This document shows positions 4,831 through 57,795 of a stretch of DNA of 64,000 bases, one piece after another (position 1 is the first letter of the stretch; each line of letters opens with the position of its first letter). The translations under genes were made by a program, and so were the position numbers. Below the pieces are notes generated by a model that saw only the letters and a list, made by a program, of their open reading frames with translations, had not been told where the DNA came from and searched no databases. Source of the stretch: a virus (Duplodnaviria; Caudoviricetes); IMG/VR virus record IMGVR_UViG_3300021399_000154, positions 5,547-69,546 of that record; one strand, given 5' to 3'.

Positions 4831-5704
4831 TAATTTTGCGCGCACACCTTCTAAATTTTTCCCTAACCATCGCTCTTTAATTTGTACGAGTTGTTTAGAA
4901 GTAATGGTGCCGCAGGATAATTTAGGAGAAGTTGATAGACTTTGCCGCTACCTAGATGTGCCATTTGATTTAAATAAATGGACTAGCTTATATGAGATAC
5001 ATAAAGATCATACATTAACGGCTTATTTTAATTTGTTATTAGATGACCATTATCAAGCTCTACAGTGGACAGATGAAAATAAGCGTTGGCACTTAGCACA
5101 GCAAGAACAAACAATTGATGATTAGGTTGAGGCTTTAAGTGCGGCTAAATGGCGGCAATTAAAGCAAGATTGGTCCTCTTCTTATACCAAATAGGAGTTA
5201 CTTTGGCTCGACAATTATTATAATCAAATTGTTAGTACTCAAAATGTCTCAACTCCTATTCTTCAGAATTATGCGCGTGATTTATGTGAAATTGAGTTGC
5301 GCATTAAAAAAGGTTTGCGCTCAGATGTAGATGTAAAAAAAGATATGGACGCGCGCGACAATATTATTAAGATAGCTAAATTTGAAGCCTCTAATGCGAA
5401 ATCTGCGGCGGACTTTTAGTCAGTGGGTGAATTAATGGTCTATTATGGCAAAAAGGGATGGCATCCTAACTGGCATACTGAACCGCAAGACTCAATTGAT
5501 TTTATGATGGAAAATATTCAAAACTACTTGCAGCGGCTAGTACGAAATGAGGGAAATTTTGCAGAGCAAGTTGAAGATAAAAAAGCACGTTATAATATGA
5601 CGGAGCGCTTAGAAGAAATTGAGAACGAAGCGCTTGAAGACGACGGAAATGATAATATTGAATACGAAGGGGGAGATGAATTAGAGGAGGAATTGGATGA
5701 ATGA
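4766..5704 (+). CDS. Putative terminase small subunit (312 aa), TAG read-through
   Basis: N-terminal CLRC...CTSC zinc finger, acidic tail, directly upstream of the large terminase; joins fragments 4766 and 5423. Confidence 0.55.
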
Positions 5705-8700
5705 GGTAATATTAAAAAATGGGATTCCTATTTAGAAAGGAAGTGTATTGACTAAACAATTTTTAGATAGGAATCAAGAATTATTTACTAAATATCTAAA
5801 TTTTTGGATACTATATCCTGATGCCTATTTAGACGCAATCCAAGACTCCTAGGATGCAAAGCATTTTCATCTCTTACCTTATCAGCGCATTGCATTGCGC
5901 GCGAGTATGCGATACCGTTATCATTTTTGGACTGCTACTCGTGCAACTTCTAAATCTTTTACTGCCTATTTAAGTTCGGTCTGCCGTGCAGTTCTATTAC
6001 CTGGATCTAATATTATGATTGCTTCGGATGTAAAAGGTACGGTTATAAAAATTGCCGAAGCAAAATTTGAAGAAATTTTTCGCCATTGGCCTCTATTACG
6101 AAAAGAACTTGCTACACGCGAAGATGACGGAAAGACAGGTATAAAATCAAGTAACAATTATTATGAGCTACGCTTTAAAAATGGCAGTATGATTACTGTA
6201 GTTTCTAAAGATACTTCACGTGGTCTACGTGCAACTGCGGCAATATTAGAGGAAGCTGCGACAATTGAAGAAGAACCTTATAATGAAGTGCTATTACCGC
6301 AAATGAATGTAAAGCGCAGAGAAGTAGATGGGACTATCAATGTAGAATAGCCTAGTTCTCCACAAACTTTTATTACAACCGCGCGTGAACGAACAGTATA
6401 TATGTATAGCAAACTTATATAGATTACCGTTAATGCGGTTTTACGACCAAAAGAATATTTTTCTTGGGGTTAACTTATAGCCCCGTTAGCCAGTGATGGT
6501 TAAGCAATAAACATCTTAAAAGCTGGAAAGTCTTAAAATCAATTATACTTTTCTTATTTGTTCTCCAAGATAAGCAAAGTTACGAAAGTAGAAATAAATA
6601 ATTGAGTGACGCATGGAGTAATCCTAAACGTTGGAAATAGATAATCAGCACCAATTATAATAGGAGGATAATTATATGCCTAAAAAATTAACAAAAGAAG
6701 ATGTAACAGAACGCATTCAAAATAAATGGCCTTAGTGGCATTTTCAAGTTTTAACTTATATAAATGCTATGACCCCTTGTAAAATTAAATGCTTATAGTG
6801 CGGGTTAATTAAAGAATATAAACAATTATATCATTTATTAACGAAATCTTGTCCTTGTGAATGTAATTCTAATTCTTCACAATTTAAATCTAAACAACAA
6901 ATTAAAGAATTAAAATAGTTTTTTGAAAATAATAAATAGTTTGAACTTATTGAATGGACAGTAATGAATGATAAAAAGCATAAGCCCGCAGTAAATATCT
7001 ATCATACAAAGTGCGGAAGAAATTTTATTCGTAGAACTACTACATTCTATCAAAATCGTATTTGTCCATATTGTGACGGCAATGCTATGCCAGATACACT
7101 TGAAATAAGCAAAAGATGCAAAGAAAAAGGATATACATTATTAACCTAGTATAAAAGTTTACAAGATAAAGTTTTAATACGACATGACAAGTGTGGATTC
7201 ATATGGAGTATTAAACCTTATAGATTTTATCACGAATTAGACGGTGATTGCCCTAATTGTAATAAAACAATTTCTAAGGGAGAAAGACGTATTATGTAGT
7301 ATTTGGAATAGCATAACATAAAATTTTCACGAGAACATAGTTTCTCATGGCAAAGTCATAAATCATATAGATATGATTATTTTATTCCGGAATATAATTT
7401 AATTATAGAATATCATGGCATTCAACATTATGAAGAAACAAACTTCTTACATTCTTCTTTATAGATAAATCAATAGCATGATGCTATTAAACAAAGATAG
7501 GCAATAATTAATGGATATAACTATTTAGTTATACCTTATAGTCATTATACTAAAATTAATGACATATTAAATAATTGGTTCAACGACTATCCGAAAGGAG
7601 TAAATAACAAGCTAATGGTTATTGAAAGAGATGTTATCTTTAATAAAAGATAAAAATATAGTCTAATCTCTATAGAAATATAGAGCCGCGAAGGGGTTAA
7701 AGAGTTGCGTCTTTAATTAAATAAAAATGATGAGTTACGAAGTACCTTTACACTATGGTCTATTAGATAAAGCTACATTATTAGACCAACGATATTCTTC
7801 TACTATTAGTGAAGAGTCCTTCAGTAGATAGGAGTTGAGTATTTGGACTGGGAATAATAAAGAAGCTTGGCTAGATTCTAAGACTTTAAATCGCAGAAGA
7901 AAATTATTAAAATGTGAGCGAAAAGCACAAGAGAATCCTACTAACGCTAATACTCAATATATGATTGGGGTAGATATTGGTAGATATAATGCTAATACGG
8001 CGGTAATGATAGGAAAAATTTTTCCTACACAGAATGGCTTTAAAAAACATATTGTTTATACTGAAGTTATTCATGGCGCGAATTATATAACTTAGCAAGC
8101 TCCCCGATTAAAAAAATTAATTCAATTATATCATCCTAAAGAAATTGTCATTGACGGGAATGGACCTGGTATTGGCTTATTAGATGCGATGGTATTGCCT
8201 TCTGTAGATTTAAAAACAGGAGAGCAATTTCCTGCCTATTATGTTTTTAATAATGACCATCATTTACCTCCGTAGATGACGAATCCATCAGAAGAGCCAA
8301 AACCTGAATACAACGCTATCATTTATGATATGAAAGCGGGCGCGGCTAATGATGATGTTATCCATTCTAACTTTTTCGCGCAAATCAATAGCGGAGCAGT
8401 TTCACTTTTAGCACACGAAAGAATTGTGAAAGACAAGTTGCTTGCGACAAAAAAGGGACAGAAGATGACATTATATGATAGGAGAGTATTTTTACTTCCC
8501 TATGAAATGACTTCTAGGTTGATTGATGAATTAAATAATTTAAAGCTAAAACCCACCGGATAGAAAAATCAATTTAAAGTTGATAGAATTTCTCGTTCAA
8601 TTGAAAAAGACCGTTTTAGCGCCTTATAGTACCTTCTTTATCGCGTGAAGTACTACGAAGATAAAGCGACTTATCGTAAGAAGAAGAAAAATTTTAGTTA

Positions 8701-8758
8701 GTATATATTCTTTAGTCCTAAAAAAATAGGGGGTGGTAACATTGGGAAAAGAAAATGA
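5697..8758 (+). CDS. terL: Terminase large subunit, join(5697..6470,7730..8758), ~600 aa
   Basis: ATRATSKS (Walker A-like), ILEEAA (Walker B), nuclease motifs IGVDIG and KDRFSA; spliced junction FSWG|MSYEVP; several in-frame TAG. Confidence 0.9.
6471..7729 (+). ncRNA. Group I intron in terL
   Basis: Exon ends in U, pairing with IGS GCCCC; P ~6518-6530, Q ATAATCAGCA 6641, R GGTTCAACGACTA 7577, S AAATATAGTCTA 7654; terminal G at 7729; splicing restores the frame. Confidence 0.9.
6676..7653 (+). CDS. Intron-encoded endonuclease (325 aa): Cys zinc-ribbon repeats plus PD-(D/E)xK/Vsr-like domain; 10 TAG
   Basis: GGAGG RBS; CxxC repeats; SKGE...YDYF...IIEYHGIQHY motif; ends TAA 7653, overlapping intron core elements. 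Confidence 0.8.
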
Positions 8759-10286
8759 AAAACGAGATTTTAAACAATTCCGAATTGATATTGAACGCAA
8801 TCGCACCCCTATAAATGGCCGCCGAGCTTATTATGGTAGATATGGAGGATATGTTAATGACCCTGTTGCGGAAGATTTTACTTTATAGGAAATCTTACGC
8901 ATTATTCGCTCTGGCGATTTAGCATCTCTAAGATAGCTATCTAGGTATTATTATCGTGTAAATGGTAATTATCGAAATAATATTGATTTTCTCGCGCATT
9001 TACCTTTATATGATAGTGTGGTGGTTCCAGTATTTCAAGAAGGTAAAGGTTCTAAAACTCAAATCTTAAAGGCTTTCTATACCGCGTGTGATTTTATAGA
9101 TAAGTTAGATTTACCTAATACTCTAGCGCATGTAACCACGGAATGGTTAATTACCGGTATTTATTACGGCATACTACGCACCGTAAATGATAAAGTTACT
9201 TTACAAGACTTGCCATTAGAGTATTGTCGTACAAGATTTAAAGATTTTAATAATTTAAATATTTTAGAATTTAACTTAGCATATTTTTTCACGATTAAAG
9301 ACGAAAAACAAAGAGAAGAAGTTATACGCACTTTTCCACCAATAGTACAAAAAGCGTGGAGAAAAACGCAAGGTAAAGGAATTGATAATTGGGTAGCAAT
9401 TACATCAGAATATGGTGGAGTTTGCTTTTGTTTTGCGCATGATCAAACGCCACTCCTGGTAGCTAGCATTCCTGAATTAAAGAAATTAGACAACGCAGTT
9501 GGCCGCGAAGAAAAACGAGATGAGAATGAACTTTATAAACTATTAATACAAAAAATGCCTATTGGTAGTAATGGAGAATTAGTATTCCAGTTAGATGAAG
9601 TCGCAGATATTCACGCATCTGTAGCTAATATGCTACAAGATGTAGATACTGTAGATGTTTTAACTACTTTTGGCGATACTAATTTAGAAAGTTTACAAGA
9701 AAGCACCTCAGCGAGTCAGTCTTCTGACCGTATTGAAAAATATAAGAAAAATGCTTGGGATGCTCTAGGGCGTGGAGAAATTTTGTTTAGCGCGACAAAT
9801 AGTTCTTCACTTGCGTATAGTATTAAAAAAGATGAGACTCTTATGTCGGCATATTTAAATATTTATGAAAGTTGGATTAAATTCTTAATTAATGATCGTT
9901 TTTCTCGTAAAAATTTAACATTTGATTTTTAGATTCTTCCATTGACTGTATTTAATCGGCAAGATTTACAACAGAACTACTTCCGTGGCGCGCAATACGG
10001 ATATTCTAAAATGTTTGCCGGCGTAGCAATGGGAATTAAGCAAATGGACCAACTTAGCTTAATGAATTTTGAAAATGAATTCTTAGAAATGTCCACAAAG
10101 ATGATTCCTTTACAATCTTCTTATACGACTTCAGGTAATGTGATTGCTAACGAAGAAAAAACTACTACCAAACAAACAACTACAGTTACTGGTGGTGCGA
10201 ATTTAGATAATACAGGGGGTCGTCCAGAACTTCCTGATGAACAAAAATCTGAAAAAACTCAAGCTAATATTTAGTCTATGGGTTAA
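8742..10286 (+). CDS. Portal protein (514 aa); 4 TAG
   Basis: Follows terL; TTG start with GGGGGTGG RBS; TAG at 8886, 8934, 9930 and 10272. Confidence 0.8.
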
Positions 10287-10297
10287 GGAGAATAACT

Positions 10298-11521
10298 ATG
10301 GAAAAAGCAATTCCTATTTATTTTGATAATGTTTTAATTGCTTCTCCATTACAGCAAGTTTCTGAAACGAACCCTAATTTGGGGCGGCTAAAAGTCGGCG
10401 TATTTACTAAATATGGTAATCGAAATGGATCATATATTACTGATGACGTTGCTGAGAAACTAATCGAAAGCGCAACTAAAGGAGATACTCCTGTAATTGG
10501 TTTTTTTGATCCTTAGACTAAGAGTTGGGCAAGTCATACTGGCCCAACCTTAGCGAGCGCCTATGGCTATGTAGAAAATTTTGAGGGGTGGCAACCATTA
10601 GTTGATACTGATGGCGAAACTCGTGACTATGCTGTCTTTACTGTAGTGCTTTTTACTAAGTATTTTGAAGAAGCAAATTTAATTATTGGACAAAATCAGT
10701 CTATGGAATTAGATATTAATTCTATTACTGGTGATTGGGCGGATATTAATGGTACAGAATATTATGTCTATACTACTGCCGCAATCCAAGGATTATGTGT
10801 TATTGGGGCACATGAGCCTTGTTTCTCAGTGTCTTCTTTCTTCTCTAAAGAAGATTAGAACTATCCTACCCAATATGATAAGTTTTCTTCACTTTTAGCT
10901 GCGGCTAAAGCGCAAGTTGAAGAAGCTGATAAAAATAAAGAGGGAGGAGAACAACCCATGAATGAATTTGAAAATGAACAAGAAGTTGTTGAAGAGCAAG
11001 TTCAAACCGAAGTTGTTGAAGAAACCCCCGTTGAACCTGAAGTAGAAACTACTCCAGAAGAACCAGAAGTGGATCATTTCGCGGAATTACAACAACAATT
11101 TGAGGCTCTACAGGCTTCTTATAATGAACTAAATCAACAATATCAAGACGCTCAGAATCGTATTGCTGAGCTTGAAACATTTCAGCAAACAGCTAATACA
11201 GATCTTGAAGCGCTTCGTCAGCAGAATACGGAATTACAAGCAACTATTACTTCTTATGAAACACAAGTAACTTCAATGAATGCTGCGCGGAAAAATGATC
11301 TCATTAATAAATATGAAAAAATGATTAATGAAGAAGAAGAAATTGAGCGTTTCCGTGCGGAAGTTGACAACTATTCTTATGACGAGCTTGAGAGCAAATT
11401 AGCTATTACCTTTGCTAATCAGCAAATGGCTCAAAAAGAAGTAGAAGAAGATAAAGTTCCTCTAATTGAGCCGCAAGAATCTCAATTTGCTCTATTAATG
11501 AAAAAATATAGGAAGAATTAA
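10298..11521 (+). CDS. Prohead protease-scaffold protein (407 aa); 2 TAG; probable nested scaffold from ATG 10958
   Basis: Between portal and capsid genes; acidic coiled-coil C-half; internal GGAGGAG RBS before 10958. Confidence 0.7.
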
Positions 11522-11534
11522 GGAGGAATAACTT

Positions 11535-12146
11535 ATGAGTATGAAACGTTTCCCTCTAGAACAATATGCTACTCTAGAGTTAAATCAAGTGGCGTTCCCA
11601 AAGACTGGTATGGTCGTTTCTCAAACTCCGCTAGGTGCAAAGTTTGTAGAAGGCGGGAGCGGCAATTATGGTGTATGTGAGAATGGTATGTGGGTTGTAG
11701 CTGATAAGTCCAAGGGTTATCTAGATGCCCCCGCTGCTGCTACTGACACTCCTATCGGTATTGTTTATACCGCTGAAAAAGAATATGATATTATGCACTA
11801 TGGTCTAAAGACTTTTGGTCGTAAGGTTGCTGGCGATTATCCTCGTGTTGGCATTCTTGGTTTAGGTGATACCGTAACCACCAATTGCTTACAGTATGAT
11901 AATAGCGAAGATGGCTTTAAGGCTAGCGGCTCTGGTGACACTGCAAAGACCGAGGAAGAGAATCTTTATGCAACTCTCGAAGCTTGGGCCACTACCCCTG
12001 TATATGTTAAGCCTGTTGCCGGTTCTCCTGTTCCACAGCTAACTAAGACCAAGCCTGAATCTGGCACTTATGGTAAAGTCACTAAATTCTATACCGTACC
12101 TAACGGCGAAAAGGGCGTTAAGTATGAAATTGTTTCCTTAGGTTAA
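11535..12146 (+). CDS. Capsid-associated structural/decoration protein (203 aa), TAG-free
   Basis: AAGGAGG RBS; directly upstream of the major capsid gene; codon bias of a highly expressed gene. Confidence 0.6.
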   Translation: MSMKRFPLEQYATLELNQVAFPKTGMVVSQTPLGAKFVEGGSGNYGVCENGMWVVADKSKGYLDAPAAATDTPIGIVYTAEKEYDIMHYGLKTFGRKVAGDYPRVGILGLGDTVTTNCLQYDNSEDGFKASGSGDTAKTEEENLYATLEAWATTPVYVKPVAGSPVPQLTKTKPESGTYGKVTKFYTVPNGEKGVKYEIVSLG

Positions 12147-12161
12147 TGGGAGGTGCGAACT

Positions 12162-13232
12162 ATGAATAATCTACAAGTTCTTATGAACGGCGTATTTGGC
12201 CGTAAAGTTCCTGCTGAGTTCGCAGCCGAAAATTATGATTACGAAGCTGCCCTGCATGATGAACTAGTAAAATTACTATGCAACGAAGATGGTCGTATTA
12301 ATCGTTATAAGTTTGAACGTAATAAGATTGATCTATTTGAACTTCTATCTCAAAATCTTGACGAAGTTCTTCCCCAGAGTGTAGAACAAGCTGTTTACAT
12401 GTTTGCTGAAGTAATGCGGGTTCCTCAAGGTTCTCGTCCTGCTTTTACTGTTACTCGTGGTAAGCAACGCGGCAAGCAATTTGTAACTCGGGCTACTGAA
12501 TCTGGTAACTACGAGACTTTCCGTCTTGACCGTGATCGTTTCGATATTTATCCTGTTGCTATTGGTGGCGCTGGATATGTCGATTTTGAACGGTATCTAG
12601 ATGGTATTGAAAGCATTACTGATATTTATGAAGTAATTAATGCCGGTATGCTAGATCGTATCTTTGAAATGGTCCAAGAAGCTCTACTTTCTACTTGGAA
12701 TCTTGCTGGCCGTCCTGCCCGCAACAAGGTAGTAGCTAATAATTTTGATCCTACCGCGATGAGGAAGCTCTGCAATACAGTTGCTGCTTATGGCACTCCT
12801 GTTATTTATTGCTCTCCTGAATTTGCTGCTGAAATGGTCAATGCCATTGTTTATAATTCTACCACTAAGATTTCTGATCAGGATATGATTGAAGTTCGTG
12901 AACGTGGTTACATTGGTAAGTTCCAAGGCACTAATGTTATCGTTATGCCTCAGTCTTTCACTGATGAAACTAATACTAAACTAGCGATGAACCCCTCTTT
13001 TGCTTATGTTATTCCTACTGGCAAGGAGAAGCTAGTTAAGCTAGTCTTTGAAGGAAATTCTTATTTCCGTGAATGGGATGATCACGAAGGTGATAATTCT
13101 ATTACTATACAGGCTTACACTAAGGTCGGTGTTGCTGTTGTTGCGACTCCTAATTATTGGGGAATTTATTACAATTCTTCTCTAAATGCTGGCAGCGGTT
13201 GGGAAACCTATAACCGGACTCTAACTGCTTAA
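12162..13232 (+). CDS. Major capsid protein (356 aa), TAG-free
   Basis: Gene position, size, GGGAGGTG RBS, strong codon bias, downstream terminator. Confidence 0.85.
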   Translation: MNNLQVLMNGVFGRKVPAEFAAENYDYEAALHDELVKLLCNEDGRINRYKFERNKIDLFELLSQNLDEVLPQSVEQAVYMFAEVMRVPQGSRPAFTVTRGKQRGKQFVTRATESGNYETFRLDRDRFDIYPVAIGGAGYVDFERYLDGIESITDIYEVINAGMLDRIFEMVQEALLSTWNLAGRPARNKVVANNFDPTAMRKLCNTVAAYGTPVIYCSPEFAAEMVNAIVYNSTTKISDQDMIEVRERGYIGKFQGTNVIVMPQSFTDETNTKLAMNPSFAYVIPTGKEKLVKLVFEGNSYFREWDDHEGDNSITIQAYTKVGVAVVATPNYWGIYYNSSLNAGSGWETYNRTLTA

Positions 13233-13243
13233 TTTATATAATA

Positions 13244-13273
13244 GGGGCGGGTTTACGCCCGCCCCGGTTTTTT
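13244..13273 (+). terminator. Intrinsic terminator after the major capsid gene
   Basis: GGGGCGGG-TTTACG-CCCGCCCC-GG followed by a T-run. Confidence 0.85.
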
Positions 13274-13292
13274 GCGTAAAAGGAGGAAATAT

Positions 13293-13745
13293 ATGAGTAA
13301 TTTATCAATTAAAAATATTAGTTCTGCAAATATAGTATTAACTGCACCAAATATTCGATTCCGCCGTGAACTGTCCCCAGGACGGACACTACCTTTAACA
13401 GCGGAATAGTATGAAGAGCTTTCATTTGATAGCGGCTTTTCTGCCTTATTAGACGGACATTATTTACAAATGTTTGGATTAGATGAAGATAAGGAAGCCG
13501 TTACTGTTGATGGAGCAGATAAAGTCTATAGTGCAACTGATATTGACAAAATACTAGACACTTTAGATATTACTACTTTTGCTAAATTTTTACCTACGGC
13601 GGCGGATGCTGAAAAAGAAACTGTTGTAAAATTAGCAATTGAAAAAGGTATTACAAATGGTGGCTTTACCGCTCTCATTAAAAAATATTGTGGCGTTGAT
13701 GTGATTAGTGCGATTAACATGAAACATCAAGCCGAAGAGAATTAA
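13293..13745 (+). CDS. Head-associated hypothetical protein (150 aa); 1 TAG
   Basis: AGGAGG RBS; TAG at 13407. Confidence 0.75.
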
Positions 13746-14215
13746 TGGCTACTCCATTACTTAAAGTATATGACGCATTTCTTGCGCGCATAACCGCCGA
13801 TGAATGGACTCTAGAAGAAGAGCTCGCAATTGTAGAGCGGGATTGGCGATAGCTTTTAAGGATGTCTATTTTTCGATTTAAATATCCTCGTATTTCATTA
13901 GAAATTGAAGAAAATAGTGATGATCCTAATACATACCAATTCACTGAAGATTTAACAAATGATGAAATTCAATTACTTGCTTTATATATGAAACATGAAT
14001 GGGTAAAAAGATGTATCGCAAGTTGGGAAAATATTCGTCAATTATACGCAGATAAAGACTTTTCACAAGCAAATCATCTTGACAAATTAAATAAACTTGA
14101 AGCTGCGATAGCTTTATAGATACAACATGCAGAAGGAATCTACGATAGATCACGGTCAAAGCGGCCAGCAGATTTATTTAGAAAGTTAGCAGGAAAGAAA
14201 AATATTGTCAGATGA
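13745..14215 (+). CDS. Putative head-tail adaptor (156 aa); 2 TAG
   Basis: TAATG coupling to the previous gene; neck-region position. Confidence 0.6.
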
Positions 14216-14477
14216 AACCTTTAATGGTTATAAGCGCAAGATGAAAGGTCGATTATATGGCGTATTATGTGAAAAAGAAAAAAATGGTGAATGGGAAAAA
14301 TTTTTAGATTCTATTATTATTGAATTAGAAGGTTTAGGCGCGACATCTATTAACTATTGGTCTTTAATTGGAAAATTAAATTCGCTTAAGCATTTAAATT
14401 ATGATTATTTCCGTAAGACCATATTTTAGTGTATGAATTTAGTAGGTGATTTAAATGAGCCAGACGAATTATCTTAA
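14205..14477 (+). CDS. Conserved neck-region protein (90 aa); 1 TAG
   Basis: FRKTIF*CMNL; ends TAA 14477. Confidence 0.7.
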
Positions 14478-15669: not shown

Positions 15670-15680
15670 GAGGTGAGAAT

Positions 15681-16944: not shown

Positions 16945-16962
16945 TAAATGGAGGTAACTTTT

Positions 16963-17874: not shown

Positions 17875-17876
17875 TA

Positions 17877-18758: not shown

Positions 18759-18759
18759 T

Positions 18760-18795: not shown

Positions 18796-18824
18796 ATTAT
18801 GCGGAAAAAGGAGAGTGAATAGAT

Positions 18825-38232: not shown

Positions 38233-38239
38233 AGGATAA

Positions 38240-43405: not shown

Positions 43406-43423
43406 TAAGGAGGAAAAGGCGTA

Positions 43424-46400: not shown

Positions 46401-48220
46401 GTGATGGATGTTTTACTTTAACTTTTGATAATGAAGCAGATTTTATAACATAGAATACATAGTTATATATATCTTTTCAAGTCCAAACTCCAAATAGTTT
46501 ATTAAATGGTGGAGATGCTTCTATTACAGCTGAAGGTGAAGATTATGTTATTAAAGGTAATAATGGAGCTCCTATTATTAATACTCATACAGGTGTGGGT
46601 GAATTTGTTTTACCAAACACAGTACAGCGCACTTTTTCCGCAAGTGCTTCTATATTAAAATTAAAAGATGGTGCTTCATTTAGTGCAGTATGGTATATTA
46701 ATGATCAGCAAGTACAAAGTAATGATGATATTATTTATACACAGGCAAGTGAATTATCTACTGATCATAAAACTTATACTACAACATTAACTATAACTAT
46801 TAACAAGGTTCAAGGAGATTTATCTACCTTAAGTGAACAAGAATTAACGGTTCAAATTATATATGATGGAAAATCGGATTAGTAGTCTTTTGGAACTATA
46901 AAGATTGATCGGCAGATCACTTTAACATGGCCTCAAGATTTTGAGTAGACGAATATATTATCATTACTAGAGAATCCAAATACCATTTTATTACAATAGA
47001 ATAGTTATAATTATAATATTAATATACAAAATACTATTAATGCTACTCAATTTTAGTGGATAATCATACCTAATAATTCTCTTCAAGGAATTCATTTAAT
47101 CGCTTCTTCTACTCAAGCGCAAACTTCTAATGATGAAAGATATAGTGTTTCATTAATCATAGAAGATAATATTATTATAGGTTCACAATTAAGTATTCAA
47201 ATTCCTAGGATGGATGATAATAATAATTTACGAGATAATGGAACCCAAATTAAATGTATTTGTAGTAATAGTGCGGGAAAAAGCAGCGAATACGTTTTCC
47301 CAGAAGAAGGGTATAAAACTTTACAAGTTGCTTATCCAATGATATTATAGGATATTTCAGAAACAGTTAATTGGTGGCCTATGCCTGTAGCAAAATCATT
47401 AGGCAATATTATTTTTTCAGTTCCAAAGAGTGTCATTAATGATAAATTATCTCCTTAGGAATTATTTACAATAAATCCAAATATTTATATATTAAGGAAT
47501 AATCAACTTGTGGAAAACGGTTTTAAAAATGCTGATGTTGAATTTTTTACTACAGTTATACGTGATGATACTTTAAGTGCTACAAATAAAGTATTTTATC
47601 AAGTTCAATTATCAGGACAGGTAAATGCATCAATGTCTACTAGTACTGAAGTTAATACATGGTTAGAGAATAATTTTACAGAAAATGACATAATTAATGC
47701 CGCGATAGAAATTTTATTAAATGCTAATTCAAATGTAAAAGTTTCTGGCATTATTAGAATTAATAGATATTCTAGTGAGCCACAAATACAAAACGGCAGT
47801 TCTACTTCTGGAAATATATATCAAAATAACAACGGTATGATAACAATTCAGTATAATAATGCAACCTTGAAAAATGCGAATAATACTTTAGCACAATCTG
47901 TCCAATTAAATCTTCATGATATTTTAGATTTAAATATGGATTCAGTTCAATCAATAACTTGGAAATATGGTGGAACTACTTCTGGAATATATTGGTACGA
48001 CATACCTGATCAACAATCTATAAATATTACAAGACAAAAAGTATAGGGAAATTTAAGTGGTATAACACAATATGGTATTCAGAATAATTCCCTTGTTCCG
48101 CCAGGCGCACCAGTTAGTATTACTATACATGGTATGGATCAACAAATTTATTTATAGGCTTCTAATCCTTATGGAACTATTCGTTCTAAACTTATTACTT
48201 TTTCACCCTTATCTAATTAA
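43424..48220 (+). CDS. Tal/baseplate hub-like tail protein, N-part with long beta-rich extension (~1,598 aa)
   Basis: AGGAGG RBS; YEVSLWSL...CEGLAFHELGKIG...ESNIYNITQTLAETF; one frame to TAA 48220. Confidence 0.7.
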
Positions 48221-48235
48221 AGGAGGTGACAATAC

Positions 48236-50902
48236 ATGAGTGATGAAAGTTCTTTTAATTATTTGACTAAGCGTGCGTTAACACTAGGTTCAGGTTGTCA
48301 ACTTATGTTTATTCGTAGGACTGAAGAAGTTAATGGTACAGAAACTTCAAAAATTATTCCAGTATTAATGTTAACTGGTGTTAACAGGTTCGGTAGCAAA
48401 GAAAATAAAGATAGCGAAGAAAATAAAGATCTTGACGGAATACGTATTACTACAGATATTGCGCAAGGGTGTGTAGGTATTGTCACTACTGAATTAAATA
48501 ATTAGAATAAATTAATTACAGAGGTTAAAAATGCAATTAAGGTTAATCCCTCTGATGGATAGAATTCTGACTGGATTACTACGCTTAAGCATGATAAAGA
48601 TGCAGTCGTATACCCGCGTATTTTTATTAAATCGCTACAAGTGAAAACTAATTCAGATGCGTTAGTATTAAAATATGAAGATGAAGAAAATTTAGATTAG
48701 AATCAAATTATTAATTATGTTCCATTAAAAGAGTATGAAGAATATTCGGTATTAACTCGAAGTCTGGAGTAGTAGTATGTCTTAACATTAAAACCTGAAG
48801 TGGTGGTTAAGAAAGGTGCATACGGTACAATAGATGGTTCTATTGCTACGCGCCAAGCGACTCTTAATTATACTATTTCTAATGCAGATACATCAATTTA
48901 TCTTGACGCAATTGAAGTATTAAAAGAGAATGCGATGCCTAAAGTAGAATATGATGTTAAACCAAATGTATTCGCAACTAAATATTGTGAAACATTATAT
49001 AATAAATTAGGCAACATTATCCGCATTAATGATAATGAATTAAAGTTTAAAAATATTAGAGGATATATTTCAGGTTTAACTTTAGACTTAGATAATCCTG
49101 ATGAGGATACAATTGAAGTAAAAAATTATAAAACAAAATTTGAAGACCTATTTTCTACTATTACCGCGCAAACTGAAGCTATGAAAAAAAATAACGGACT
49201 AATGTAGTCCGTTGCCGCCGCATTTACTTCTTCTGGTGAATTATCAGAGACAGTATTACAATCTTCTATTAGAAAAGTAGATTTAGATTATGCATTTAAT
49301 AATGGTAAATTAACCATTGATGAGCACAATGGTATTTGGGGTACTAGTGATACTGGAGTAGTTGCATTCCGAGGTGGCGGTATTTTTACCGCAACTGAAA
49401 AAAACACTTAGGGAAATTGGAAATGGAATACTGGTATTACTCCAGAAGGTATCAACGCAGATTTAATTACAACTGGCCAATTAGATACTAATTTAATTAA
49501 AATTTATTCAGGCGATAATGTACGTTTCCAAATGAATGGCGATGGCATTTTTGCTTATAAAAGTAAAACTACTTACATTGACAAACCTTCACAAGCTGAA
49601 AATGCCGACCTCAAACCAGATGGTGAAGAGACGGTTTCTGCACAAGAAAGTATTGATAATTTACAGTATGTACGTTTTTGTGATGAAGGGTTGATACTTG
49701 TCGCAAAAAAAGGTGCAAAAGTTTTAAATAATACCAAAAGCGGTTACATTACTGTATTAGAAGGCCAATATGTACCGGGAAATGAAATTAAACGTGTTGA
49801 AATTGGATGGAGAGGCTTAATTCTACGCAACTGGAAAAATGAAGATGTATTTTATGCAGATGCTGATACTGGTAATTTAACATTAACAGGTAGAATAATA
49901 GCTACTTCAGGTAAAATTGGAGCTTGGAATATTGATAATAATAAGATTTGGGCTGATAGTGCCGCGAATGATGAAACTTATACTACATTTGTAGCATTAA
50001 ATGCAGGTGGCACAAGTAGTGATGCACTAGTAAAAAGTGATGGTACAGCATATCTTGATAATAACAATAATGAATTACGAGTTTCTACTAAAGATTATGC
50101 ATTTTGGGCAGGTAGTCCAAATCCTGCCGAAGCAAAGTTTTCTATTAAAAAAGATGGAACGTTAAAAGCTACAGCTGGTCAAATTGGTGGATGGAATTTA
50201 TCTCCTGATTTATTATATAATATTGATAGCTTAATTTTAGCCCCAGGCGCGAAGGGAAAGGGAGAAACTGAAATACTGGTTCCTATACAAAGTGTAAATG
50301 AAAAGGGTGAATTAGAATGGGATGACAATGGAGACCCTGTATATTAGAAATACGAAAATGGTAAAATTAAATATGAAACAAAAAAAGTTTCTTATCAAGA
50401 TACTATTTTATGGGTACCATCAGAAGCTAAAAGAGCTGAGTATAAAGATGAGAAAAGGGAAAATAAATTACCTATTGTTGACACTCTAGGCGGTGCTGTT
50501 CTTACTATTTCTAAGGATGGTGATCTTACTGCTGCATCAGTTAACGGATGGAAACAAGCTTGGATGGCAGGAGATTCATATATCATACGAAGTGCTAGTT
50601 CTTCAGGTATGTCATTAAGAAATTTAAAAACAGGCGGGACAAAATGGGTTTCTTTTAATAACCTCAACGGTGCGACTGCCACCCTTCACGTTGAGGGAAA
50701 AGGTGTAACTAGTGGTGGCAATAAAGAAGGAAATTGGAGTAATAAGGGACTAGATTTATCGGTTACTGTTACTCTTAGCAACGGGCAACAAAAAAAATTA
50801 TCATTAGGATCCTATGCATTAAAAATTAGTTGTTCAAAAACATGGGCTTCTGCTAGTTTTGGTGGAAAGAGTGTAGGGTGCGGTGTTCCTAAAAGTAATT
50901 AA
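48236..50902 (+). CDS. Tail tip protein, C-part of the Tal-like family (888 aa)
   Basis: AAGGAGGTGA RBS; NYKTKFEDLFS..TA, GITPEGINADLITTGQLDT and repeated G.IGGW motifs. Confidence 0.75.
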
Positions 50903-50906
50903 ATAT

Positions 50907-50940
50907 AAAAGGAGACTCATTCTTGAGTCTCCTCTTTTTT
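50907..50940. terminator. Bidirectional intrinsic terminator between convergent modules
   Basis: AAAA-GGAGACTCA-TTCT-TGAGTCTCC-TCTTTTTT. Confidence 0.85.
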
Positions 50941-51315
50941 TATTATCCAATCAATCTGTACCATTTCTTTTGGAGTCATTTCAATATCTTCAAAATCATC
51001 TAAATCTAATGTGACTGCATTTAATTCAATTTGTGTATCATTTAAAATAGCGATTTCTTTATTATAATCGGGAATATTATCCTTCATAATTTGTACATTC
51101 CCATCTACACTTACAATAATTTCACCATTTTCATCTTTTTCACAATATTTATTCAGTAGTTCTCTGCGCGCCTTATCATATAGCTCTAATTCATTAGAAA
51201 CTGCCTGAATAACTTTTCCAACTTTATAAGCTAGCTTTCCACGTAAGGGCTTATCACCTAATACTTTTAACGCTTCGGCACTATTAACTAAGTCAACTAA
51301 TTTAACTTCAATCAA
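50917..51315 (-). CDS. Conserved hypothetical protein (132 aa)
   Basis: Intact ORF with TTGA overlap to the resolvase gene. Confidence 0.75.
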   Translation of the reverse strand: MIEVKLVDLVNSAEALKVLGDKPLRGKLAYKVGKVIQAVSNELELYDKARRELLNKYCEKDENGEIIVSVDGNVQIMKDNIPDYNKEIAILNDTQIELNAVTLDLDDFEDIEMTPKEMVQIDWIIKKEETQE

Positions 51316-52055
51316 ATATCTTCACCCCAACTTGACTTATTACTTTTTAAGATACTACAAAAATATTTTCCAATACAAATTGCATCTGCTTCATCTTGTG
51401 TACAATCTTGTCCATACCATAACTTTACTTTATCTTGTGCTTGTTTCTTTTTGGTTTCTCTTCCAGTCCCATTACCAACATCACAATACTTCCGCCATTG
51501 TGTCGCATATACTAAATCATGGTCAATACTCGCTTCAAAAATTGCATCAAGTAGTACTCCTTGTAACCGCGCGAGCGCGCGATAAGTTTCAACTTGATAA
51601 TTATTTCCATTGCCGAAAGCTTGTAATTGTATCGCTTCTAAACCAATGAAATCTGGTTCCCATTCTTCCATTGCGGCGATAAGCCACTTCTTCATAGTAT
51701 TGATGCGGGCTTCGGTAGATAACTCTTTATCTACCTTATAAATCCCATAATATACTAAATCATTATTATCAAAAATAGCATATCCAGTGATATTAGTTGC
51801 TGCGTCTAATGCTAAAATACGAGTTGTGTCAATCTTCTTGATTGGCACCTTATTTTTTTTGATCTTATAAGGATCGCCAGCCAAACATTTTTCACATAAC
51901 ATATGTTTGCGCCAGTTACCATAACTTTGTAATTGTTTATGGCCTTTTGGGCACTACATTTCTAATTCTGTATTTAAATTTTTATAAGTGTCGCTAAGCA
52001 ACTTCCAGCCTTCTTGCTCTAAATGATTAGCGACACTATAAATATTAATAGGCAT
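51312..52055 (-). CDS. ruvC: RuvC-like Holliday junction resolvase with N-terminal zinc ribbon (247 aa); 1 TAG
   Basis: ILALDAAT, GLEAIQ and DEADAI motifs; N-terminal M*CPKGH...CEKC reached by TAG read-through from ATG 52055. Confidence 0.8.
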
Positions 52056-52873
52056 TATTTACCTGTACTGCCAAAGCCGCCAGATGACCTATCTGTTTCT
52101 TGTAGCTGGTCTACGACTTTAGCTTTAAAGTGATAATTAGGCATGACCATTAATTGCGCGATTCGGTCGCCCTTATTAATAGTATAATCAGAATCAGAAA
52201 GATTATCATATAGTACGCCAAGCGGGCCTAAATAACCGCTATCAATTATTCCTGCACTATTGCTTAGCCGCAGACCAGTCTTGGCGCCGATGCTAGAACG
52301 TGGGAAAATCATAGCCATCCATCCTTCTGGAAGTTGAATATGAACACCAGTTCTTACCATATTTGATAGTGAATGCGCGGGTAGTACCATAGTATCCGCC
52401 GCGTAAAGGTCAGCCGCGGCATCTGTCTTATGCGCGTATGTAGGTTCTTGTGCGCCTTCATCTAAAGTCATTGGCAAAATAATATGATAGTTATGATATT
52501 GATCACTAATCTCAGTAAATGCATTAATGATGGGATTAAAAATAGCATTTAATAGCCTACGCTGGTTATCACTTGGATTTAAATCATTAACCAAGGCTTG
52601 AATTTCTTGTTGAAAGTGTTGAATATAACTTACAACCTCTTCTTGCTTGATCCCTTGATCATCAAAATTGGCCTTTAATTGCTGTATAGTACCAGGTGTT
52701 AAAATATCGGCAATAACATTTTCAGTAGTAGTAATTAGAGAAACTGTCATTTCTTCTGTCAGCATCTCGTCATCCATTTCCATCACTTGATTAATAATAT
52801 CTTGAAAATTTTCAATTGATGGATTATCTGGTAAAATTTCATTTAATCGCGCGCGAATTTCTTCTTGTTCCAT
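52055..52873 (-). CDS. dut: Trimeric dUTPase with ~125-aa acidic N-terminal extension
   Basis: AAADL, PRSS, GIIDSGYLG, GDRIAQL and RSSGGFGSTG motifs. Confidence 0.92.
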   Translation of the reverse strand: MEQEEIRARLNEILPDNPSIENFQDIINQVMEMDDEMLTEEMTVSLITTTENVIADILTPGTIQQLKANFDDQGIKQEEVVSYIQHFQQEIQALVNDLNPSDNQRRLLNAIFNPIINAFTEISDQYHNYHIILPMTLDEGAQEPTYAHKTDAAADLYAADTMVLPAHSLSNMVRTGVHIQLPEGWMAMIFPRSSIGAKTGLRLSNSAGIIDSGYLGPLGVLYDNLSDSDYTINKGDRIAQLMVMPNYHFKAKVVDQLQETDRSSGGFGSTGK

Positions 52874-52884
52874 ATGTATTCTCC

Positions 52885-53091
52885 TTAGTCATTAAAAGTT
52901 CGTTCTATTGTAACGACTGTCCAGCTATCAACTATTTCTCCTTTCGACTTCTTTGTCTTTAGGACATAGCCGGACTTAGTTACTGTGTAATCTTGTGTAA
53001 GTTGACCATCTTTAGCTTCTTGAATCATGTTCATTGCTTCATCTTCAGTATCAACGCGATATACTTCAGTTGTTTTCAGTAGTACTTTCAT
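52885..53091 (-). CDS. Hypothetical protein (68 aa)
   Basis: MKVLLKTTEVYRVDTEDEA...; GGAG RBS. Confidence 0.7.
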   Translation of the reverse strand: MKVLLKTTEVYRVDTEDEAMNMIQEAKDGQLTQDYTVTKSGYVLKTKKSKGEIVDSWTVVTIERTFND

Positions 53092-53419
53092 TTTCTTCAA
53101 TCTCCTTTTGTTTCTTTTCATTTAGTTCTCGTAGACTTTTAATTAGTTCAATATAATTTAGTTTTTGTGCGGTTTCGGCAATTGTTTCCGCCTTACTTTT
53201 AATTCGGCGCTTATTCCTTTTTAGCCATGCTCTTCGTTGCGCGCGATTCATAGGTGGCATATTTTCTTGAATCTTTTTGCGCGTAAATTCTTTAATATTA
53301 TTTAATACGTCATCTGCGGTTTCCCCGCCAACGAGATTTGTTGCTTCTTCTTCTGATACGCCTTGCGCTTCTGCAAAACGCGCAAGCAATTGTTCCTTGC
53401 TTAAATTTTCTTCACTCAT
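53066..53419 (-). CDS. Hypothetical protein (117 aa)
   Basis: Intact ORF with ATGA coupling. Confidence 0.7.
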   Translation of the reverse strand: MSEENLSKEQLLARFAEAQGVSEEEATNLVGGETADDVLNNIKEFTRKKIQENMPPMNRAQRRAWLKRNKRRIKSKAETIAETAQKLNYIELIKSLRELNEKKQKEIEENESTTENN

Positions 53420-53709
53420 AATACTACCTCTAATACATTTTTAATTGTTTCGTATTCTTGTTTATTATTTAAACCAAACATTGTAAATAATTTATCATTA
53501 TGTGCGATAAGAGGAATTTCAATTTTACTTGTCATACTTTTAATAATATCATCTATTAATTCATAATAACTTGATGTTATTGATATAGTGTCTTGTTTTG
53601 TTTGGAATGTAATTTTACCAATTTTCCCAAGAATTACCATGTATTTATCATCATTTTTTACTAACGCTATAAGCCAATCTTTAATAAATTTTATTTCTTG
53701 AAACTCCAT
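53416..53709 (-). CDS. Hypothetical protein (97 aa)
   Basis: GGAGG RBS; intact ORF. Confidence 0.65.
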   Translation of the reverse strand: MEFQEIKFIKDWLIALVKNDDKYMVILGKIGKITFQTKQDTISITSSYYELIDDIIKSMTSKIEIPLIAHNDKLFTMFGLNNKQEYETIKNVLEVVL

Positions 53710-53711
53710 TT

Positions 53712-54662
53712 TTAGCCTCCTCCGCCTGCATTCTTATTAAATCCATATTCTTGGCTCTTAAAAAAATTAATATAATATTTTTCTAATTCATTAAGTTGTT
53801 CTTTTTCACAATAAATAATTGGCTCAATAGTCCAATTCCAAAAGCCTGTTTTCCATATCTAATGATGTACCGCTTGATCTGCGATTGTAGAGATTCCAAT
53901 ACTTGATTTTATATGGTCCGTAATACGTTTTTTGATATTAGTGCTTTTCCCAATATAACATTTACCATTATTGATAAAAGTTAATTTATAGATACCAGGT
54001 TTATCTTCTATGCCAGCGCGTTTAAATGTATCATCAATGTATGGTTTAACATATTCAGACCATACTAATTTATTAATTACATCAGGATGCTTTACTTGCT
54101 GTGAGACTTGCGTAATTAAAAAGTTTATATCTTCTTTATATTCATCGGGCACTTGTATTGTATAATACAATCGCTGTTGTTGTTCCATTTCTAATTGCTT
54201 TAAAGGTGTAATTAAACTATTATACTTCTACTACATGAATTGTAAATTAGTAGTTAATTCAGTTGTGCGCGCTTGACATTCAGCTTCTACCTGTTCTGCC
54301 GCGTCTGTAGCAACCTTTACTCGTTTTTCGCACTTTTCGATTTGTTGCTAACAATATATATCATAAGTATCGGCTAATTCACTTTTTCGTTTTTCTAAAT
54401 CTGCTTCTAATTGTTGTTCTCGTTGCGCTTTTAATTCTGAAAAATATGTATTTAAATCCTTATTCTTGAGAAGCATAACATCGTTATGCTACATTAAAGC
54501 TGTTTTTATATCTTTCTAAATATCAGATAATACTTGTTGTTTTCCATGAATCTCTGCATCTAAATTAAATAGTTCACTTTTATCTAAAATTTGCTGCTTT
54601 TGTAATTTTAAAATTAATATTATAATAACAATAATTAAAATCCCGCTAATACCCCAGCCCAC
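53712..54662 (-). CDS. Membrane-anchored coiled-coil GIY-YIG nuclease (316 aa); 6 TAG
   Basis: N-terminal TM helix ILIIVIIILIL, coiled coil, PGIYKL...CYIGKS...R, ELEKYYI...GFN. Confidence 0.75.
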
Positions 54663-54693
54663 TAATTTCACCTACCTATTTTCTTTATACCTT

Positions 54694-54722
54694 ATTATAT
54701 CATAGTTTTATAAAAAAGTCAA
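54694..54722 (-). promoter_or_regulatory. sigmaA promoter
   Basis: TTGACT-17-TATAAT with TG. Confidence 0.85.
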
Positions 54723-54725
54723 ATA

Positions 54726-54765
54726 AAAAGAAAAAAGGACGAGATGTATATTACATCTCGTCCTT
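54726..54765 (-). terminator. Intrinsic terminator over the FTR stop codon
   Basis: 14-bp perfect stem AAGGACGAGATGTA-TAT-TACATCTCGTCCTT plus T-run. Confidence 0.85.
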
Positions 54766-54948
54766 AATATATAAGCCGCAATGGCAGGTTTGTCCAACGG
54801 GTACTTGTTCACGCATTTCTTTACAAATGCATTTATAATCCTCATTTCCCTTACTATTTAAAACGCAAGGGCAATATCCGTCATTTTCACGCAGCCCCGC
54901 GCGAATAGCCGCGACTATTTCTTTATCTTCATTAATATGTATTTTCAT
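54751..54948 (-). CDS. Ferredoxin-thioredoxin reductase catalytic subunit-like (65 aa)
   Basis: GYCPC...CIC...CHCGLY. Confidence 0.8.
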   Translation of the reverse strand: MKIHINEDKEIVAAIRAGLRENDGYCPCVLNSKGNEDYKCICKEMREQVPVGQTCHCGLYIKDEM

Positions 54949-55430
54949 GATATTTTCTCCGCATATTGATTATTACTTGCTAAATTAACTCCTAGCGTTT
55001 CATCGTAATGTGGTTCATAACCAACTAAATAAGGTCCATATTTTATAATTATGTTTTTATATTGCTGTAATGTGGTTAAACAAGTCAATTCACTTCTTGC
55101 ATAGCCAGTATAAATAATAATAGGGTCATCACACTTTTTTTCTATACGAATAAATTTAATTAAATCCAATAATTCTTTTTCTGAATCAAATGGCTCTAAT
55201 CCTTGACAACAAAAACCTTTAGTAATAGGATTTTGTTGGTATAAACCCCATATTTCATTAAATGAAATTTCTATATCTGGCTCAATGGCAAGCGCACTAT
55301 TTTGGCATACTTGGCATTTATTTATTTTATCACACTTAAAAGTACAAAACGGAAATTCCAAAGTGAGGACAGGCTCTTTATAATTTACAAAATCACAATC
55401 AATAATTCCTTTAATTGTCATTTCTATCAC
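54945..55430 (-). CDS. nrdG: Anaerobic RNR activating protein (radical SAM)
   Basis: CTFKC...CQN cluster motif, GLEPF, IYTGY and IKYGPY; next to nrdD. Confidence 0.8.
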   Translation of the reverse strand: MIEMTIKGIIDCDFVNYKEPVLTLEFPFCTFKCDKINKCQVCQNSALAIEPDIEISFNEIWGLYQQNPITKGFCCQGLEPFDSEKELLDLIKFIRIEKKCDDPIIIYTGYARSELTCLTTLQQYKNIIIKYGPYLVGYEPHYDETLGVNLASNNQYAEKIS

Positions 55431-55659
55431 CTATATTATATTTACAATGTATCATAGAGCATTCGCCAGAGAAAGTATAAAAAAAACAATCATCACATTG
55501 CGAATGGAGTGGACACCATTCTGGTCTTTTAGTTTTATAATCATCACATTCCCAAGCTGCGCTGCAGAGTCGGCCATGACAGTAATGAAACTCTTCATCT
55601 AATAATGGACAAACAAAGCAATCAGAGGGCTTTTCAATATCAAATTGTATTTGTATCAT
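55411..55659 (-). CDS. Small Cys-rich hypothetical protein (82 aa)
   Basis: CFVCP...RPEWCPL...CDDC. Confidence 0.65.
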   Translation of the reverse strand: MIQIQFDIEKPSDCFVCPLLDEEFHYCHGRLCSAAWECDDYKTKRPEWCPLHSQCDDCFFYTFSGECSMIHCKYNIGDRNDN

Positions 55660-57795
55660 TTATATGCTCCCATTGACGCATCTTAAATTCTTGTTTTCTT
55701 TCTTTACTCCAAGTTTTTATAGGGGTGTAAACTTTTATACCCTCGGTTTCCCGATATTTATTAGGGGAATAGACTATACCATTATCTTTTTAGATATCCT
55801 TTGGTAGTCGTTGGGGCCACGGGTGCCTGCGGATTACCCAATTCTTTAAACTTTTACACTAAGGTGTTAAAGACTCTAAGGGCTTCCCCGCATATTCAGG
55901 ATTTCTTATTTTAAATCGTGTTATATTATTTCTAATATATTGGGCAATACACCATTTTACCCTACGATTCTTGTATATTCAGTTACAACCTCACCACCGC
56001 AAACTGGACATTTAGTACCGTAAAAAGCGTGGTTGCGTGCACAAGCTTGAATTTTGGTATTAAATGCAAAATACGTGAGTCCTTGATCCGCAATATAATT
56101 TACTGCTTCCCAAGCCTTTTCAAAAGTATCAAATGGTGCATCAATATTTAAATGGGCAATTGAGCCACCATTACAATAACTATCAAATAGAGATGCAATA
56201 CGAATGCGTTCCGCGATGGTTGTTTTAATTCCTAAAGGAACAAATTGATTAGCATAAAGTGGAAGATCTTTAATTACTTTTGTAGGATAAAGTAATTCAT
56301 CTGCTTTTTGCATTTTTGCTGCTGCTTGCTCCCCTGGAATTTGTTCAATAGATACTTTATAATTTTTATCTTTAATGAAATCTGTTTTACATTTGGTAAT
56401 AACGTTAAATATTTTTTCACCAAACGCATCGGCTTCTTTAGAATAATAAGTATTCCCTAATTTATCTTGCTTAGTATAACCAAAATATTTTATTGTTTCA
56501 TAAATTCCAATAACGCCTATTGTATTATATTGTGTGTTAATATCAATTAATCCATCACAGTAATTAGGTAATAAGCCCTTTTCATGATTGCGAATAATTA
56601 TATTTCGTACTACATCAAGAACTTTTAAATCTAATTCAACTAAATGTTTTAATCGCGTTAAATACTCTTCTTCAGAATTAGTTTCATAAGCAATACGTGC
56701 GAGATTAATTGTTGAAACTTTAACGGAACCTACTCGAAGAGCAGTACCGCCAATACTAGAAAAAAATCCTAAATCATCAATATTGGATTTTAGGCGGCAA
56801 CAGTTACTTAAGCTGGTAACACTATCACTCGTAAATAGATTAGAATCACTCCATTTTCTATTATGTTCAATTGCCCACTTCGCAAATTCTTCATCTTCAA
56901 AATGATGATTCTTATAAATCATTGAAATTGAACTTACGGGAAAAGTAAACATATTTTTAGAACGAATGTCGCTCATTACCTCAAGAAAAACTTTTTGAAA
57001 TTGTTTAATATTATCTAATTCATCAATCATAAATGCTCCATCTGGAAATTGCGCTGCGCCAAAAAGAGCTTCTAAATAAGGGGTATCAAAAAAATTAACG
57101 TTAGTAAATGCAGATTGAATTGAATCTCGTACAGCCGGTTGATTGACTGCATAGATAAAACGTTGAATGTTTTGCTTGGCATAAGTCTCAGGGTCTTTTG
57201 TGTAATAATTTGCTGCGACATCGCGACTCCAAAAATAATACATATAAGGAATTAAGTCTGGTAGTCCACATGCGCCAGAAGTAAGATTGCTATTATAGCT
57301 AATAAACTCTTTCACAAAATCAATAAAAGTAGTTAAATGTTGTGCCGGCTCATAATTAAAATCTGTTAAAAAGAAAAGACCTTCTTCGGCTAAACGTTTA
57401 AGAGTATAGGCATAACAGTATGGCTTAAAAGTGCTAGTATCAGCGTCATGTAAATATAAACCTCGGTTCCACTATAATTCTAGCCATTCATTAGCAGTTT
57501 TAAAACCATATTGCTTATTAAGTTCATAATAAATTTTATTATATGCTAACAATTTCCGATGCGGTTTCGGCATTTCATTCATTAATGTTCGCATATCTTT
57601 ATGCCCAACATTTGCGTTTCCATCTACAGATGCATCAGCGACAGTATCTTTATCAATAAAATTATCAATAAAATCAGTATAAGATAATTGATTATCGCCA
57701 AAACCATTTAAATAAGCAAATTCTTCTCCATATTTTTCGCTCATTCTATTATAAGCGGTTGTAAAATTTTTATTAAGTCGTACTTGTATATTCAT
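55640..57795 (-). CDS. nrdD: Class III anaerobic ribonucleotide reductase, complement(join(55640..55731,55959..57795)), ~642 aa; 1 TAG; no ATP cone
   Basis: YLHD, SNCCRL finger loop, VSTINL, CxxxH and CPVC zinc motif, spliced glycyl-radical motif TRIVG|FYTP; TAG at 57472-57474. Confidence 0.92.
55732..55958 (-). ncRNA. ORF-less group I intron in nrdD (227 nt)
   Basis: Exon GGGU pairs with IGS GCCC; P 55884-96, Q 55827-35, R 55805-13, S 55770-78; terminal G at 55732. Confidence 0.9.

Follow-up and report, generated by a model that had tools for sequence, protein, structure and literature searches.

We analyzed how the codon TAG is read in a 64,000-nucleotide stretch of viral DNA (the window), bases 5547-69546 of the 69.5-kb linear viral contig IMGVR_UViG_3300021399_000154 (34% GC, 42% complete). 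Judged from alignments with related phages, TAG very probably encodes essentially glutamate (Glu, E), as a third glutamate codon that is used mainly in late genes. It behaves like GAA and GAG in each alignment test with power, and TAA and TGA remain stops in this phage. The original prediction had proposed Glu, or an ambiguous mixture of Glu and glutamine (Gln, Q); the assignment to Glu was upheld by computed profiles with positive and negative controls. With the capsid protein, 80 relatives were found in IMG/VR (67-93% identity), the near-complete genomes among them being 160-190 kb long. The contig that contains the window is incomplete and belongs to an SPbeta/Phass-1-like phage of the ruminant gut with a genome of 160-190 kb; the nearest complete GenBank phages are Phass-1 (38% by capsid protein) and Enterococcus and SPbeta-like phages.

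With translation table 11 the coding density of the window is 60%; readthrough of TAG raises it to 97%, compared to 70% for TGA and 85% for TAA. The window contains approximately 250 in-frame TAG codons, and a true-stop test found no gene having homologues that terminates on TAG alone. The candidates for true stops in the window's contig were rejected: three are shadow frames, and the remaining one matches by chance within a 1,721-codon tail gene. One G-to-T change turns GAG into TAG and is a signature of oxidative damage, but the probability that the TAG codons are such sequencing damage, or that the genes are decaying pseudogenes, is practically nil. GAA is several-fold more common than GAG, yet frames of up to 5,494 codons are not interrupted by TAA, and a matching tRNA is encoded by relatives. 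Damage or assembly error is moreover ruled out because the same TAGs recur in independent assemblies: 61 are common to the window and a 99.3%-identical contig and 50 to the window and a 95-98%-identical contig, positions 7730-16172 are matched at 98% by a contig from a run of a separate study, and 16 TAGs also occur in the sister genome G001, which is 80% identical. In the 99.3%-identical strain (L193) a TAG lies opposite the TAT (Tyr) codon at 11967 of the window, in a gene with no other TAG; this may be an error or a real variant.

For all residue tests TAG was translated as X. In pairwise alignments the TAGs of the window align with E in 53%, with D in 12% and with Q in 5% of the cases; the controls gave E/D/Q values of 63/8/4 for GAA, and for CAA 42 Q and 10 E. 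Column profiles were built from 32 relatives without in-frame TAG, which use the standard code. The profile log-likelihood (natural log, 58 columns) for the TAGs of the window is +73.0 for E, -8.5 for D, -16.7 for Q and -51.6 for K, and each of nine control codons recovered its own residue. The best residue in this check, which the original prediction had suggested, is thus Glu and not Gln. The same test assigned Gln to 45 other recoded relatives (Gln-type) and Glu to L001 (+84 over Gln), L074 (+225) and weakly L018 (+10; 15 sites). L076 looked Glu-like in the pairwise test but was rejected as Glu-type, since profile scoring gives Gln.

The columns that are invariant in at least 30 relatives show the same preference: the window has TAG in eight of 75 Glu columns and in none of 31 Gln columns (p = 0.10 for this table alone), and invariant Glu columns are occupied by TAG about as often as by GAG (8 vs 10). 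Conserved Gln, which had been predicted to be written CAA or CAG, is indeed encoded in this way in 65 of 72 columns (TAG in one) and in 31 of 31 strictly invariant columns. The features that carry this evidence are the following.

5417-5419, plus strand: TAG in the gene 4766-5704, at a column where Glu is strictly invariant (65 sequences, all E); TAG in G001, too.
5697-6473, plus strand: exon 1 of the large terminase (ATPase part), 4 TAG, of which 6348 and 6420 are in invariant Glu columns.
7727-8758, plus strand: exon 2 of the large terminase, 6 TAG: 7829 and 8627 in invariant Glu columns, 8093 and 8273 in Glu/Asp columns, 8561 in a Val column and 8699 in a Gln-consensus column.
8733-10286, plus strand: portal protein, 4 TAG, including 8886 (E/D), 8934 (E in 26 of 31) and 9930 (E in 26 of 31).
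14427-14429, plus strand: TAG in an invariant Glu column (68 sequences, all E); the three well-sampled Glu-type genomes all have TAG here.
18825-38232, plus strand: tape measure in two pieces (18825-20579 and 21748-38232), 107 TAG; 22048 and 22102 are in invariant Glu columns.

Individual sites had been named as Glu positions of these protein families. An in-frame TAG is present at every one of them, and those in conserved genes are all upheld. In standard-code relatives the terminase sites are occupied by E in 30 of 30 (8627), 23 of 23 (7829) and 30 of 30 sequences (6420, KLIX), and by E in 20 and D in eight at 8093 (ITXQAP). Portal site 8934 has E in 26 and Q in three, FRKTIFXCM (14427) has E in 27 of 27, and tape measure sites 22048 and 22102 have E in 12 of 12 each. 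Tape measure site 20409 is more variable in these relatives (E6 Q4 D2) and is E in 23 of 24 Gln-code relatives; opposite the TAG at 57472-57474 in NrdD, two of the three homologues carry Glu codons (GAA and GAG). The tape measure repeats, which had been quoted on both sides of the question, drop out: at 26023, 29803, 31279, 31783 and 32236 local identity is 15-45%, and these sites carry no weight either way.

Comparison with G001 agrees with this result, since TAG is exchanged for GAA or GAG at 47 sites and for CAA or CAG at five (p approximately 5e-5), although CAG and TAG differ by a single transition. Genome-wide, consensus sites gave E/Q counts of 45/4 (the window's contig), 41/5 (G001) and 109/4 (the circular genome G002). 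Tail, replication and endonuclease genes were taken as a further set, and their comparison with three standard-code genomes gave E at 32 and Q at seven of 82 sites. Whole-protein scores against PHROGs mostly differ by 1-2 bits between TAG as E and TAG as Q, in both directions; E is ahead by 4 for the best family of the intron endonuclease. Phass-1 as an outside control gave one E and one Q and is too distant for the profiles.

Reading TAG as Gln (ordinary code 15) would agree with the published phage TAG reassignments that we found, which are all Gln, with the 45 Gln-type members of the same family and with the public gene calls, which already translate TAG in this phage as Gln. The Glu signal would then have to come from tolerated Glu-to-Gln substitutions or from alignment bias. 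We consider this very improbable: the identical pipeline yields Gln for the 45 relatives and Glu here, a difference of approximately 90 log units, and code 15 would require E-to-Q changes at eight columns in which Gln does not occur in any of 36-73 relatives, although the invariant Gln columns are never written TAG. The suppressor tRNA is also of a different kind. Public databases therefore probably mistranslate these proteins. In G002, TAG is present at 13 invariant Glu columns. One of these lies in the Walker B-like motif ILEEAA of the terminase, the second Glu of which is written TAG (GAA at 6252 in the window), and translation as Gln turns this residue into Gln. As generally in ATPases, it would be the catalytic Walker B Glu. 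A search for homologues of terminase exon 1 in the PDB yielded none of use.

The sister genome G001 and G002 encode one tRNA with the anticodon CUA each; the two are 82% alike, and the one of G001 (L082:10845-10919) is flanked by a TAG-rich tail-like gene on one side and by holin-like genes on the other. Both have G1·U72, A73, U11-A24, a U13·G22·A46 triple and a 4-base variable loop without base 47. The tRNA-CUA of a third genome, G037, has G1·U72, A73, U11-A24, U13·G22 and a 4-base variable loop. Here positions 1-72, 2-71, 3-70 and 73 were taken from the parser, and the identity elements of G001 and G002 were read by hand. U11-A24, U13-G22:A46 and a missing residue 47 are major determinants of glutamyl-tRNA synthetase (GluRS), whereas G73 and U1-A72 are Gln determinants, with U1-A72 being the signal for the amidotransferase (PMC9976931). 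All three suppressors lack the GatCAB signal, and most tRNA-Glu of the phage family likewise have G1·U72 and A73. A search with the D-arm pattern and a free anticodon retrieved 25 distinct tRNA-Glu, three Ile/Val and no Gln tRNAs. The nearest match is a viral tRNA-Glu(CUC) with 79% identity, which is one anticodon change away from the suppressor. A BLAST search against cultured phages returned weak partial matches only.

The suppressors of Gln-type relatives are unrelated molecules (36-52% identical to those of the Glu type). Common to all seven are G73, a variable arm of 18-23 bases and weak pairing at 1-72 (U-A, A-U or A·C). Altogether, tRNA type and inferred code agree in nine of nine genomes in which both are well seen; G038, which has a tRNA of the G002 type, shows E at three, K at two and Q at none of its consensus sites. 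GluRS or glutaminyl-tRNA synthetase (GlnRS) genes (PF00749) and release factor (RF) genes (PF00472) were found in none of 26 family genomes, 16 of which are at least 90% complete, including the circular G002.

Some features of these tRNAs are noted in addition. The variable arm of the seven Gln-type suppressors (L090:5318-5410, L091:1547-1631, L092:3158-3243, L095:2469-2558, L097, L099 and L102) is unlike that of normal tRNA-Gln, and six of them contain a CTGAAG/CTGAGG motif. The Glu-type suppressor of G001 (L082:10845-10882) and the Gln-type suppressors of G022 and G019 (L092:3158-3243) have different bodies and an identical anticodon arm, which may be due to recombination or convergence. A copy of the G002-type suppressor at L173:5813 (plus strand) is seemingly interrupted in the anticodon loop by a tRNA-like insert, and several G002 tRNAs have comparable inserts. 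In the fetched stretches of six Gln-type genomes (G015, G017, G018, G023, G024, G025) a tRNA-CUA was not found; it may lie elsewhere or be interrupted. Two pattern matches, in L085 and L088, were rejected as suppressors, both being tRNA-Arg.

Several observations weigh against a pure Glu code. The main counter-example is the TAG at 16113-16115, which is located in a Gln-consensus column (Q in 24 of 25), and the TAG at 8699 lies in another (Q23 K5); both columns have TAG in many Gln-type relatives, too. Gln is slightly in excess at TAG sites (4/49) compared to GAA/GAG sites (8/369); with shadow frames counted, the Fisher test gives p = 0.04. The window's contig contains no tRNA, ARAGORN at relaxed thresholds giving noise only, and the tRNA evidence for the window therefore passes through the 80%-identical sister. 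Among 333 tRNAs of the family, which are not the source of the suppressor, the bodies nearest to it are not Glu (best Met 0.68; Glu 0.61) and point to no particular isotype, which leaves the Glu ancestry of the suppressor resting on foreign tRNAs and on identity elements. Finally, C36 and modified U34 are strong determinants for E. coli GluRS (PMC9976931), and the suppressor has neither: its anticodon is C34 U35 A36, followed by A37. Since it must read TAG, U35 and A37 are the only anticodon determinants kept, and in place of the weak determinants G1-C72/U2-A71 it has G1·U72 and G2-C71. The mismatch in the anticodon is the weakest link of the mechanism.

The two Gln-column TAGs may be relics of a Gln code, CAG-to-TAG changes tolerated as Q-to-E, or sites of partial Gln insertion. 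The last option would correspond to ambiguous decoding, mostly Glu with a real share of Gln that is introduced via GatCAB, via host GlnRS or by two coexisting suppressors. We regard this as improbable. It would account for these two sites and the slight Gln excess, and a synthetic amber suppressor derived from E. coli tRNA-Glu is said to insert part Gln. Genes for capsid, tube and polymerase are free of TAG, as would also be expected for any codon with a scarce tRNA in abundant proteins. With a two-class site-mixture model the Glu share was estimated at 0.93 in the window, and its interval (0.80-1.0) extends down to 0.80, but for G002, with TAG at its Walker B-like Glu, the share is 0.99 (0.94-1.0). 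The use of TAG at invariant Glu columns at a frequency close to that of GAG also speaks for Glu, and a single CUA tRNA was found per Glu-type genome, none of Gln type. Of the proposed mixture, an even split is disfavoured by the model, and a small Gln share may remain.

Decoding as Glu would proceed as follows. By gene order, the tRNA region of the phage would lie approximately 30 kb past the contig end, and in the absent 58% of its genome the phage would carry the same Glu-type tRNA as its sister. Host GluRS would charge this Glu-derived amber suppressor despite C34 and A36, and without U1-A72 and G73 the tRNA would not be amidated by GatCAB and would be charged poorly by GlnRS. It would outcompete host RF1, and full-length late proteins would be made only after the tRNA has accumulated, as proposed for code 15 phages. 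The original prediction had instead started from the amidation of tRNA-Gln and a tRNA-CUA that fully or partly escapes GatCAB. An origin from a Gln tRNA did not hold, since the suppressor of Glu-type relatives has a tRNA-Glu body; without U1-A72 it would indeed escape amidation, as had been expected. The indirect Gln-tRNA pathway, with a non-discriminating GluRS and GatCAB (PMC9976931), would account for a GluRS that accepts a changed base 36, and there the 1-72 pair decides between Glu and Gln. In contrast to that pathway, the suppressor would be a direct substrate of GluRS and shows no sign of transamidosome entry.

The distribution of TAG bears on the question of whether the host itself reads TAG as Glu. 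The minus strand encodes early cassettes and replication genes and the plus strand the virion operon.

3502-50902, plus strand: late operon (sigma-factor-like, terminase, portal, protease, capsid, head-tail, tube, tape measure and tail genes), approximately 240 in-frame TAG.
3502-4830, plus strand: first late gene, PHROGs sigma-factor family phrog_5767 (E 2e-15).
6676-7653, plus strand: intron-encoded endonuclease open reading frame (ORF), 10 TAG.
11535-13232, plus strand: gene upstream of capsid and major capsid protein (YonB family), no TAG.
16948-17874, plus strand: tail tube protein (YomU family), no TAG.
20611-21465, plus strand: HNH ORF within the tape measure insertion, 6 TAG.
38240-50902, plus strand: three tail genes with 35, 28 and 8 TAG.
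51312-59333, minus strand: middle genes: RuvC-like (1 TAG), dUTPase-like (0), GIY-YIG (6), NrdD (1, at 57472) and 58248-59333 (2).
59330-63253, minus strand: DNA polymerase III alpha-like gene, named from motifs; 0 TAG vs 102 GAA/GAG (p = 2e-10).

TAG makes up 9-34% of the Glu codons in packaging, tail and homing endonuclease genes (12-25% in the tail genes). Apart from the polymerase, capsid and tube genes, the dUTPase-like gene is also free of TAG, and in other middle genes TAG is rare. This late-gene bias suggests a standard-code host. A host with TAG as Glu, whose code the phage follows, would fit the lack of window genes ending on TAG alone; the supplier of the tRNA would change with such a host, the residue would not. 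This is quite improbable, since TAG is nearly absent from the early cassettes and the polymerase, Glu-type genomes carry their own suppressor, and the exact D-arm pattern of this suppressor had one match in 185,579 bacterial and archaeal genomes, which is not a tRNA. Judged from the relatives and from PMC10607447, the host would be a Firmicute, probably of the Clostridia; sheep and cattle gut samples are among the sequencing runs with related sequence. Contigs from RNA runs match portions of the late operon; they belong to other strains and carry no information on expression level or editing.

A tree was calculated from four head genes, TAG codons being replaced by gaps. In it the window and G001 are sisters (support 100) and share a clade with the Gln-types L002 and L006, whereas G002 is sister to the Gln-type L039. 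A topology that groups the window with G001 and G002 was rejected (p-AU 0.0035; 31 of 81 rows retained, with three Gln-type rows as root), and Glu-type genomes are thus not one clade. Since G001 and G002 have homologous suppressors and yet sit apart, transfer of the suppressor tRNA between lineages is the simplest reading; alternatively, recombination of head genes would yield the same picture. Gain or replacement of the suppressor tRNA is probably what changes the code of a lineage. We see about an even chance for the wider view that one phage family uses three codes (standard, TAG as Gln and TAG as Glu), with TAG changing its meaning as one suppressor tRNA gene is exchanged horizontally, including Gln-to-Glu sense-to-sense switches in TAG-rich lineages, and with the two Gln-column TAGs as relics. 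The standard-code L024 is sister to two Gln-type genomes with few TAGs (L022 and L076), possibly a recent start of recoding.

TAG-recoded code 15 gut phages include crAss-like, Lak, Garnet, Topaz and other phages (10.1101/2021.08.26.457843; PMC9523058). As in these, most TAGs are found in structural and lysis genes while replication genes avoid the codon, a phage tRNA-CUA is present (here in relatives) without a phage synthetase, GC content is low and close relatives use the standard code. In contrast to them, the residue is Glu with a Glu-type tRNA, and TAG is not aligned with conserved Gln. The Phass-1 group (OQ749652; PMC10607447) shares TAG recoding, suppressor tRNAs, the lack of a synthetase and a predicted Clostridia host, but Phass-1 is described as TAG=Gln (PMC10607447). 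Of 29 phage suppressors screened in E. coli extract, 28 inserted Gln and one Ala; Gln is likewise what publications on recoded phages have assumed or demonstrated up to 2026. In the literature searched, which left most subscription journals outside its scope, no description of a phage or bacterial TAG=Glu code was found. UAG=Glu occurs in ciliates, in Oligohymenophorea sp. PL0344 (UAA=Lys, UAG=Glu) and in peritrichs (UAR=Glu) (PMC10553269). There, too, UAG is read by a tRNA-Sup(CUA) nearest to tRNA-Glu, and an ancestor with a Gln code is inferred (PMC10553269). Those are eukaryotic nuclear genomes with constitutive decoding, whereas here a bacterial virus shows a late-gene bias and keeps TAA and TGA as stops.

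TAG as Glu contradicts the published rule that phage TAG reassignment is to Gln only and would be a new natural code for bacterial viruses. Tools that pick code 15 from coding density would misassign the residue at each TAG. A natural Glu-type amber suppressor without a phage synthetase tests the tolerance of bacterial GluRS for anticodon changes, and with three codes in close relatives, each recoded type having its own tRNA, the reassignment of a codon in use becomes testable.

The terminase junction, with the insertion 6474-7726, was fixed with an intron-less 600-amino-acid homologue, P0010 (L196). The tape measure gene comprises approximately 6,000 codons and is split by the insertion 20580-21747. 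Both insertions carry endonuclease ORFs that are TAG-heavy (10 and 6, respectively). The HNH ORF ends with TAG-TAA (21443-21465) and therefore terminates under either code. In the first late gene (3502-4830) codon 12 is TAG, also in the sister G001; in this sigma-factor-like gene it is possibly a gate on late transcription.

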